Source: a virus (Duplodnaviria > Caudoviricetes). Taken from it: a stretch of 48,162 bases of DNA. Positions within the stretch are counted from its first letter, which is position 1; the number at the start of each line of letters is the position of its first letter. The notes beneath the pieces are model-generated. The model made no database searches and was not told the origin of the DNA. It saw only the letters and a program-made list of their open reading frames with translations. The position numbers and the translations under genes were made by a program. Location: positions 1 through 48,162 of IMG/VR virus record IMGVR_UViG_3300037440_000441; one strand, 5' to 3'. Shown here one piece after another: positions 23,356-24,629 of this stretch.

Positions 23356-23382
23356 GCGTCACTCTCCTAAAGGCCAACTTTG

Positions 23383-23413
23383 GCACCTTGTCGGTTGTAT
23401 TCCGACAAGGTGC
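23383..23413. promoter_or_regulatory. 12-bp inverted repeat upstream of the prim-pol gene (operator or RNA hairpin)
   Basis: GCACCTTGTCGG-N7-CCGACAAGGTGC. Confidence 0.55.
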
Positions 23414-23590
23414 TCATTTTCATGCTCAATGGGCGTGCGCGTCAAGCTTTGCGCGCCAGAGCCTCTCTGCGATAGTCCCTCACTGCCCGCGCCTCGCGCT
23501 CATAGACGCGGGCGTTGTGCGCCCCGGACAGGTAGTCGGTGAGCGCCTGTAGCTCGCGCATCTCGCGGTTGAAGGAGGCACGGGCGGGGG

Positions 23591-24187
23591 TCATGGCTGA
23601 CGCTCCCGGTTATGCTGCCGCAGACGGCATTCCCACCGCCTTTTTGGCTTTCCCATCACCTCCTGGTATTCGCGACTGTCGGATAGATGATCGTTTTTGC
23701 GCCAACCGGGCAGAACAGGCTTGGTATCGGCCGCGTGACACCATCCGGCCCCGCGAAGCGAAGCCCCGCTTTCATCCGTCAGCGTGTAGGAAACAATGAA
23801 ATCAAACCCCATGTGTCGGCAAACACGGGTGCACGCCCCATAGAGGAACGAGACGGCGTTCTTTGGGGCGCTATCGTCCACGCATGTGCGCAGAACCTCC
23901 GCTACGTGCCCATATTTTGCTTTGTCCATGTAGGTCGCTGACAAAGGGTTGCCGACGATAGCTACACCAACAACGCGGCCCCCGCACTCGCACGCGATGG
24001 CGAATTTGCCACCATCGCGTGATGTTCTCCCGTTGTGCCTATGGTGCGCCTGCACGAAGTCGTTAGCCGCGCGCAACGTGATCGGCTTGACCGTGAACTG
24101 GAGCGGAGAGGTCGGAATCGAACCGCCGTCTTCCCGTTGGTAGGGCTGCACTTCCATTGTGCTATCTCCGCGTTCGGCCGCAGTCAT
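23591..24187 (-). CDS. Mom-family / XF1762-like GNAT DNA-modification enzyme
   Basis: 'AANDFVQAHHRH...GVAIVGNP...EVLRTC...NAVSFLYGAC...MGF..IVSYT...ESGASLRGAGW...K.RW'. Start at 24187 (coupled ATGA) or 24157 (GGAG-N8-ATG). Confidence 0.75.
   Translation of the reverse strand: MTAAERGDSTMEVQPYQREDGGSIPTSPLQFTVKPITLRAANDFVQAHHRHNGRTSRDGGKFAIACECGGRVVGVAIVGNPLSATYMDKAKYGHVAEVLRTCVDDSAPKNAVSFLYGACTRVCRHMGFDFIVSYTLTDESGASLRGAGWCHAADTKPVLPGWRKNDHLSDSREYQEVMGKPKRRWECRLRQHNRERQP
24099..24171 (-). ncRNA. tRNA-Gly-like element embedded in the 5' end of the Mom-like gene
   Basis: GCGGAGA TA GCAC AATGGAA GTGC A GCCCTACCAACGGG AAGAC GGCGG TTCGATT CCGACC TCTCCGC T CCA. Perfect 7-bp acceptor, 4-bp D stem, T-loop, U73 and CCA. 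Anticodon arm shortened, T stem with a bulged A. Confidence 0.75.
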
Positions 24188-24528
24188 CTCTTCACCGGCT
24201 CTACGAGAGCGGCGCGACCGATGGCGAGAACGTCCGCTTCGCACTGACCACTTTCGGCGTCATCGAGGATCGTCGTAAGTGCATCCCTCAGTCCATCTAT
24301 CACCCGTGCCTGGGCTTCTAGGGCGGCGGCGGCTTTGTCCATAGCCTCGCAAAGCAGTTCCGGGTCGGCAACTCGTACATACCCGTCCTGCACGAACGTC
24401 GCGTTTGACGCTGCCCGCCGGAGACACGCAATGTCTTCGTTCAGCCACCCCACCAGTCCCTTGATGTCAGCCGGCAGGCCCTCGCACTGGCCTGTGGCAG
24501 GCTTGCCGCACTTAACGCAGATGCCCAT
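24184..24528 (-). CDS. hypothetical protein
   Basis: 114 aa, GGAGG RBS, coupled to the Mom-like gene. Confidence 0.6.
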   Translation of the reverse strand: MGICVKCGKPATGQCEGLPADIKGLVGWLNEDIACLRRAASNATFVQDGYVRVADPELLCEAMDKAAAALEAQARVIDGLRDALTTILDDAESGQCEADVLAIGRAALVEPVKR

Positions 24529-24591: not shown

Positions 24592-24629
24592 AGATTACTC
24601 TTGCCAATCGAATCATGCAAGGCTAGTAT
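24592..24629. promoter_or_regulatory. overlapping divergent sigma70 promoters
   Basis: Plus TTGCCA(24601)-N17-TAGTAT. Minus TTGCAT(24620)-N17-TAATCT. Confidence 0.65.

Follow-up and report, generated by a model that had tools for sequence, protein, structure and literature searches.

A tRNA-Gly-like RNA written in frame into a phage Mom-like gene, and its possible dual use as message and glycyl donor

The operator of the E. coli thrS gene is an autoregulatory leader that mimics a tRNA. The locus described here resembles it in that tRNA identity elements stand close to a start site, but the gene that would be regulated does not encode a synthetase, the whole cloverleaf with its CCA lies inside the ORF, and the same RNA family also occurs where initiation cannot be touched. 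A second reference is Mom of phage Mu which, according to the available sections of PMC13219725, moves glycine from Gly-tRNA-Gly onto DNA adenine, accepts all three E. coli tRNA-Gly isoacceptors, reads or is sensitive to the charged tRNA 3' end, and requires part of its unstructured N-terminus. The protein of our locus shares with Mu Mom the GNAT fold, the equivalents of R111 and S124 and the glycine link. It differs in belonging to the XF1762 subfamily, without equivalents of D149, R151 and Y159, and its gene carries a tRNA-Gly-like RNA within the ORF, whereas Mu uses host tRNA and Com control. As in Mu com-mom (PMC6483171, in the parts available), the start region of the Mom gene lies in RNA structure; unlike there, this structure is a full tRNA mimic and an alternative coupled start stands outside the fold. 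Finally, we infer a likeness to the staphylococcal non-proteogenic tRNA-Gly used with FmhB, FemA and FemB, which combines Gly identity, a T-stem altered at the EF-Tu site and a GNAT-fold glycyl transferase as partner (PMC7826273 and PMC3239215, both available in part). As far as these sources go, the staphylococcal RNA has changes of T-stem pairs, whereas the locus RNA has a T-stem bulge and a shortened anticodon loop; it is moreover phage-borne, lies in frame inside the coding sequence of the enzyme, and its predicted acceptor is DNA.

The locus is part of a window of 48,162 nt (the whole stretch of viral DNA that was analysed). All the features of the Mom-like and tRNA-like locus are on the minus strand, which an earlier, sequence-only reading had left unstated, and they are the following:

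24184..24528, minus strand: upstream ORF, 114 aa, whose TGA (24186-24184) overlaps ATG 24187
24192..24196, minus strand: GGTGA, candidate Shine-Dalgarno (SD) for ATG 24187, predicted duplex -8.4 kcal/mol
24185..24187, minus strand: in-frame ATG that precedes G1 by 16 nt and overlaps the stop of the upstream ORF
23591..24187, minus strand: Mom-like GNAT ORF, 198 aa (188 aa if begun at 24157)
24099..24171, minus strand: tRNA-Gly-like element, 73 nt, with G1 at 24171 and an encoded CCA at 24101-24099
24165..24171, minus strand: acceptor 5' strand, with G1, C2 and G3 as Gly identity bases; it includes GGAG 24169-24166
24166..24169, minus strand: GGAG, candidate SD for ATG 24157, predicted duplex -6.6 kcal/mol
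24148..24162, minus strand: D arm, 4 bp and a 7-nt loop
24155..24157, minus strand: ATG in the D-loop (nt 15-17 of the element), which may be a secondary start
24133..24145, minus strand: shortened anticodon-like arm, 3 bp and 7 nt, with the invariant CC at 24140-24139
24110..24127, minus strand: T arm, in which A 24112 bulges out between the equivalents of pairs 51-63 and 50-64
24099..24109, minus strand: acceptor 3' strand, with discriminator U 24102 and CCA
23630..24097, minus strand: XF1762/Mom domain, residues 31-186, beginning directly 3' of the element CCA
23442..23594, minus strand: downstream ORF, 50 aa, whose ATG overlaps the Mom-like stop in a second ATGA overlap

Translated in frame, the element gives residues 6-30 of the Mom-like ORF. 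The upstream ORF (24528-24184) starts with a CxxC motif and has no Pfam or PHROG match. Two further signals were observed around the operon: a 13-pair hairpin at 23382-23414, terminator-like or a processing signal, in the gap between the primase-helicase gene and the Mom-like operon, and a plus-strand promoter-like site at 24601-24629, within the divergent gap. The database protein for the Mom-like gene has 161 aa and begins at TTG 24076, within the domain and without the first predicted strand. This TTG was rejected as the start, since it would cut the strand that the model predicts at residues 31-36.

The kinship of the protein to Mom is indicated by several searches. Its ORF matches NF045478 (XF1762 family) with 132.7 bits, above the curated cut-off of 50, and PF25680 (Mom) partially, with 32.1 bits against a gathering cut-off of 27.1; phrog_1384 is a further, weaker Mom match. 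The structure model has a mean pLDDT of 79, residues 1-21 being below 50 (low confidence), and Foldseek with this model returned Mu Mom (8BV8) at ranks 1 and 2, with E 1e-8, TM 0.62 and 15% identity. A PDB sequence search with a profile of the close clade gave nothing significant, and a search of the viral collection with the single protein found no second locus. From profile alignments, R100 and S113 correspond to the catalytic R111 and S124 of Mu Mom, and these equivalents are invariant in 24/24 close homologues; the positions of D149 and Y159 are Leu in 24/24, and the position of R151 is without Arg in the XF1762-type protein. Because these last three equivalents are missing, the chemistry of the XF1762-type protein is unproven. 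We think that a DNA-modifying activity of this Mom-like branch is likely.

The RNA itself is close to a tRNA without being recognized as one. The isolated 73-mer folds as a cloverleaf of -25.4 kcal/mol (z -1.86; 10/200 shuffles were as good). The Rfam tRNA model (RF00005) scores it at 28 bits (E 0.0009), just under the 29-bit cut-off, and ARAGORN and Rfam at gathering level called nothing in the whole window; our family covariance model R1 gives 84 bits to the element, which is part of its training set. What it shares with Rfam tRNAs is the cloverleaf, and what separates it from them is the sub-cut-off score, the T-stem bulge and the short anticodon arm. The set of bases by which bacterial GlyRS identifies its tRNA (G1-C72, C2-G71, G3-C70, C35, C36 and U73, as listed in the available part of PMC9976931) is complete. 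The anticodon stem has 3 bp below a 7-nt loop, instead of the canonical 5 bp and 7 nt, and the uninterrupted 5-bp T-stem of a decoding tRNA-Gly is replaced by a bulged one, in 56/56 and 42/49 elements of two sets; on this geometry of anticodon loop and T-stem a decoding tRNA was rejected. An attachment-site remnant was rejected as well, the element being a whole covarying cloverleaf, unlike an ordinary tRNA. In the mismatched anticodon arm (24145-24133), the 7-nt loop would show CCA (Trp) at the decoding positions. Leader and trailer pair over 4 bp at this locus, a pairing that is not conserved (at least 3 pairs in 12/152 loci; shuffled mean 7.3, maximum 15). No variants in the element were found in one DNA run, which may itself be the source.

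Relatives of the element were gathered with a DNA pattern made of the T arm and the acceptor end, in which protein information is limited to the element's own codons. It yielded at least 120 viral loci (about 280 estimated), with 96 distinct elements including this one, and 44 loci in genomes, several of which are chance matches. Among 55 elements of the 5' type, 96.9% of cells are paired, against 41-53% in slid controls; two-sided changes occur at 13/21 pairs, compensatory changes are present in all four arms, and 0/500 shuffles of the 55 sequences reach the observed pairing. Invariant pairs in this set are partly fixed by the search pattern and hence uninformative. A less biased set was obtained by fetching loci with Mom-domain alignments from which the RNA-encoded peptide was left out, followed by a covariance model search. 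Its 77 elements of 76 nt, none identical to a pattern hit, have G1 in 77, C2 in 74, G3 in 77, C35 in 77, C36 in 77, C70 in 76, G71 in 74, C72 in 76, U73 in 66 and CCA in 66; the bulged T-stem A is found in 76/77, and U55 is kept in merely 55/77. The third codon positions of the T arm are near-fixed (33/41, 47/50, 40/50 and 41/42, that is 80-98%), whereas 15 conserved four-fold codons in the Mom domain average 0.42. The tRNA-like fold proposed by the sequence-only reading is thus confirmed beyond chance by family covariation and, judging from these alignments, the element is a real cloverleaf under RNA-level selection, with Gly identity bases and a link to Mom.

Other parts of the structure are more variable. 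Anticodon loops of 5'-type elements have mostly 4-6 nt, the 73-nt relatives have an anticodon-like arm of 4 bp and 5 nt, and many 3'-type copies are only 66-71 nt long with a reduced D arm. In copies of this last kind (L344, L345, L347, L350, L396, L402, L403 and others) the T-loop is altered too; the acceptor identity bases, the CC and the bulge are retained. ARAGORN called 83/152 members of the family, 63 of them without an assignable anticodon, and labelled 5/152 as tRNA-Trp. The bulge falls, by what we take to be the usual pair numbering, among the pairs that determine EF-Tu affinity; it may affect EF-Tu binding and is a candidate natural EF-Tu anti-determinant. That affinity is set by three T-stem pairs, and weak binders include non-ribosomal donors, as described in the available part of PMC3239215.

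The association with Mom genes is strong in the loci collected. PF25680 is matched by 81 of the 90 tested ORFs that overlap pattern hits. The element stands just upstream of the Mom domain at 67/80, 12/80 (plus 2 weak) and 41/61 protein-fetched loci and just downstream at 54/80, one further distant match having been dropped; these fractions are not family-wide, because the seed alignments came from element-bearing clades. At general XF1762 loci the element was found in 0/73. It is tied to several deeply diverged Mom clades, with varied placement. At 49 distinct 3'-type loci the Mom ORF enters the RNA right after its conserved C-terminus; these copies shift frame, and a stop falls inside the RNA in 10/49 and before G1 in none. 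Among 37 re-examined loci, the RNA lies 6-18 nt 3' of the Mom stop in 5, the Mom start comes 12-19 nt past the CCA in 3, and in 3 the RNA is on the opposite strand, tail to tail with Mom; 14/37 showed no Mom match within the 300-900 nt examined. Such varied placement favours a product acting in trans. Bulged elements whose examined flanks had no Mom match are those of L209, L210, L211, L214, L215, L233, L241 and L032.

In cultured phages, blastn with two elements returned ordinary tRNAs, unannotated matches and Salinibacter phage B2_17, where a bulged tRNA-Gly copy without encoded CCA comes directly after a stop. The Mom-like ORF of this phage (L404:1845-2543) seems frameshifted, and the frame of the conserved C-terminus stops just before the RNA. 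In Arthrobacter phage BarretLemon (L553:1101-1174), an unannotated, unbulged tRNA-Gly-like RNA overlaps the end of gene 71, which is Mom-like and is present in about 20 related Arthrobacter phages; Microbacterium phage Dropshot has an ordinary-looking unbulged tRNA-Gly on the strand opposite its Mom-like gene. Twelve further Mom-like regions of cultured phages contained 2 tRNA-like matches, both bulge-free. Tandem Mom-like pairs were also seen on shared contigs (L489/L419, L502/L414 and L529/L411), the first member with the RNA and the second without, as if a single RNA served both enzymes; L411 holds a decayed RNA remnant.

We think that the locus is rather probably a dual-use transcript, which serves either as mRNA or as the source of a cut-out, non-ribosomal glycyl donor for its own enzyme; the start, the processing, the charging and the use are steps that we infer. 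Ribosomes from the upstream gene would restart at the coupled ATG 24187 and translate through the fold. Transcripts that escape translation would fold, and RNase P, from its general behaviour, would cut them at 24172/24171, with 3' trimming after the CCA. The released RNA would be charged with glycine by the host glycyl-tRNA synthetase and, once glycylated, it would evade EF-Tu and become the glycine donor of the Mom-like enzyme. The competition between ribosomes and nucleases would divide the transcript pool and cap the enzyme output. Because cutting the transcript destroys the message, the two fates would be exclusive without a dedicated sensor, and the proposal of the sequence-only reading that mRNA and mature tRNA are mutually exclusive fates of each molecule holds by geometry, whichever start serves. 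In our view the output cap results from the overlap itself rather than from a switch dedicated to feedback. At this locus the D-loop ATG would serve as a secondary start, and a minority of relatives would use it as their main one.

Some observations go against this dual-use reading. A pure donor would need neither the frame that is open across the element in 151/152 5'-type loci nor the clustering of starts at -4 to -16. A private donor is not required either, because most XF1762 genes do without the element and Mu Mom takes all three isoacceptors, and the T-stem bulge could also hinder RNase P. A self-balancing cassette, in which uncleared mRNA of a DNA-glycylating enzyme would be matured into its private, EF-Tu-proof Gly-tRNA while binding of GlyRS or of the enzyme would shift the split and replace Com control, seems doubtful to us; 5'-type genes would there lose or hide their start, and 3'-type genes would lose their stop. 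No Com match was found in a search whose positive control was silent, and Pfam gave no Com-family match.

The sequence-only reading proposed a possible autoregulatory switch, with 24157 as the working start and the fold, held by GlyRS, the enzyme or RNase P, hiding the SD in a Com-independent feedback. The geometry is as it described: GGAG 24169-24166 is nt 3-6 of the element, within the acceptor 5' strand, an 8-nt spacer (24165-24158) separates it from the in-frame ATG 24157 in the D-loop, and the second ATG, at 24187, shares this frame and is coupled to the upstream stop. GGAG is mostly paired, with a mean unpaired probability of 0.09-0.24 in seven sequence contexts and 0.0 in the isolated 73-mer. 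A need for restraint would also fit with what is known of Mom, the overexpression of which kills E. coli (PMC7261163, available in part) and the translation of which is activated by Com (PMC6483171, likewise). However, a GGAG and a D-loop AUG are roughly expected of any tRNA, because the Rfam consensus has a G-rich acceptor 5' strand and a D-loop AUG; the fold stands by covariation, whereas the motif pair as a signal is only weakly beyond chance. The computed opening cost is 15.3 kcal/mol at 24187 vs 17.2 at 24157, and removal of the acceptor 3' strand leaves the latter at 17.3 (secondary structure only); GGAG stays covered by other local pairing, and the contribution of the acceptor helix is about 0. 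The SD of 24187 is the stronger of the two. Across the 53 loci with a D-loop ATG the helix adds a median of 1.3 kcal/mol, and at least 2 in 20 of them (again secondary structure only).

The distribution of starts was studied in a pooled 5'-type set of 152 distinct out of 203 loci. An in-frame ATG is present at -1 to -21 in 100/152, compared with 15 and 31 in the other two frames, and any start within 30 nt upstream in 127/152, with peaks at -10 and -13. The start overlaps a stop in 54/150 upstream starts, against 53/794 internal control codons and 2/53 D-loop ATGs. Among 22 close proteins with the RNA-encoded peptide, the gene calls begin upstream of G1 in 17, and a start at -7 or -10 is present in four of the five distinct relatives that are nearest at the DNA level. 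ATG 24187 is likely the main start of the Mom-like gene. The D-loop ATG occurs in 53/152 elements, with large differences between clades (0/56 in one, 10/12 and 23/32 in two others); it is absent from the five nearest DNA relatives (0/5), where two have TTG and one GTG instead, and the corresponding residue of the 22 close proteins is Met in 4 and Leu in 9. These counts, which derive from comparing genomes, differ from a conserved SD and start inside a structure of the com-mom or thrS operator type: a ribosome-binding site and AUG within the fold is not a shared design of the family.

In some relatives the D-loop start looks more serious. In 16/152 loci a D-loop ATG is present and the preceding 30 nt contain no start in frame (raw Fisher p 0.001); on a quick, long-branched tree of 136 rows, these D-loop-only starts imply 8 or more independent changes. 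The predicted SD of D-loop ATGs has a median of -9.0 kcal/mol vs -2.2 for internal ATGs, and the SD before nt 15 weakens to -5.1 in 5'-type elements without a start there and to -3.5 in 3'-type ones; where both starts are present the D-loop SD is the stronger in 22/37, and for 3 of the 22 close proteins the D-loop Met is the start picked by gene callers. The raw associations between starts and SDs (p 0.001 and 0.00004) vanish in phylogenetically independent pairs, which are 10-11 in number and of low power (median p 0.69, 0.63 and 1, the link between D-loop ATG and SD giving 1), and compensation between SD and upstream start among D-loop ATG loci has p 0.13. Some relatives probably do initiate in the D-loop, and this locus may do so too. 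A regulatory switch at the start keeps in its favour the D-loop-only loci and their strong SDs, and has against it the poor conservation and the null independent pairs. Moreover, initiation is out of reach for 3'-type, separate and antisense copies, and uncut mRNA lacks the free aminoacylated 3' end that Mu Mom reads, according to the sections available of PMC13219725. We therefore consider the switch unlikely.

It is also improbable, in our opinion, that the RNA is released and charged without being the preferred donor of Mom, acting as a sink for host defences that target tRNA-Gly, as a damper of Mom or as a top-up of the tRNA pool. Such a decoy or reserve would be in line with the acceptance of ordinary tRNA-Gly by Mom (PMC13219725, available sections), with the unbulged tRNA-Gly genes that adjoin Mom-like genes in Dropshot and BarretLemon, and with the 14/37 loci that have no Mom match nearby. 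However, the RNA is closely linked, physically, to several Mom clades that diverged deeply, and it has lost the geometry needed on the ribosome, with anticodon loops of 5-6 nt, missing D arms and the T bulge; both traits fit a donor better than a pool top-up. Least of all do we believe in a captured tRNA gene now decaying, or retained solely for its encoded N-terminal peptide, a very improbable and already largely refuted reading for which the frame open in 151/152 loci, the part of the unstructured N-terminus needed by Mu Mom (PMC13219725, as available) and the single decayed remnant in L411 might speak, against the compensatory changes in four arms with fixed wobble bases, the frame shift of 3'-type copies with an internal stop in 10/49, and the pLDDT below 50 of residues 1-21.

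A literature search, with most subscription papers outside its scope, returned no paper that describes a tRNA-like RNA within Mom genes or next to them. The main text of PMC13219725 contains nothing on a tRNA-like RNA, an overlap or XF1762, and tRNA-like RNA at Mom genes is unmentioned in the available parts of PMC7824862 and of a Mom preprint. A dual-coded, Mom-linked tRNA-Gly-like RNA would be a new form of dedicated aminoacyl donor, which is known as a kind.

Mom has only recently been shown to draw glycine from charged tRNA. If the dual-use reading is true, phages supply an aminoacyl donor of their own, which EF-Tu does not see, for a DNA modification that evades restriction, and the locus would be an example from nature of a sequence that is at once a tRNA and an in-frame coding region. 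The RNA family is widespread, mostly unannotated and written into Mom coding sequences; it flags wrong start calls, such as TTG 24076, and leads one to expect glycine chemistry in the XF1762 branch, which is uncharacterised. Moreover, a regulated either-or split of the transcript, should there be one, would account for the restraint of toxic Mom-like genes that have no Com.
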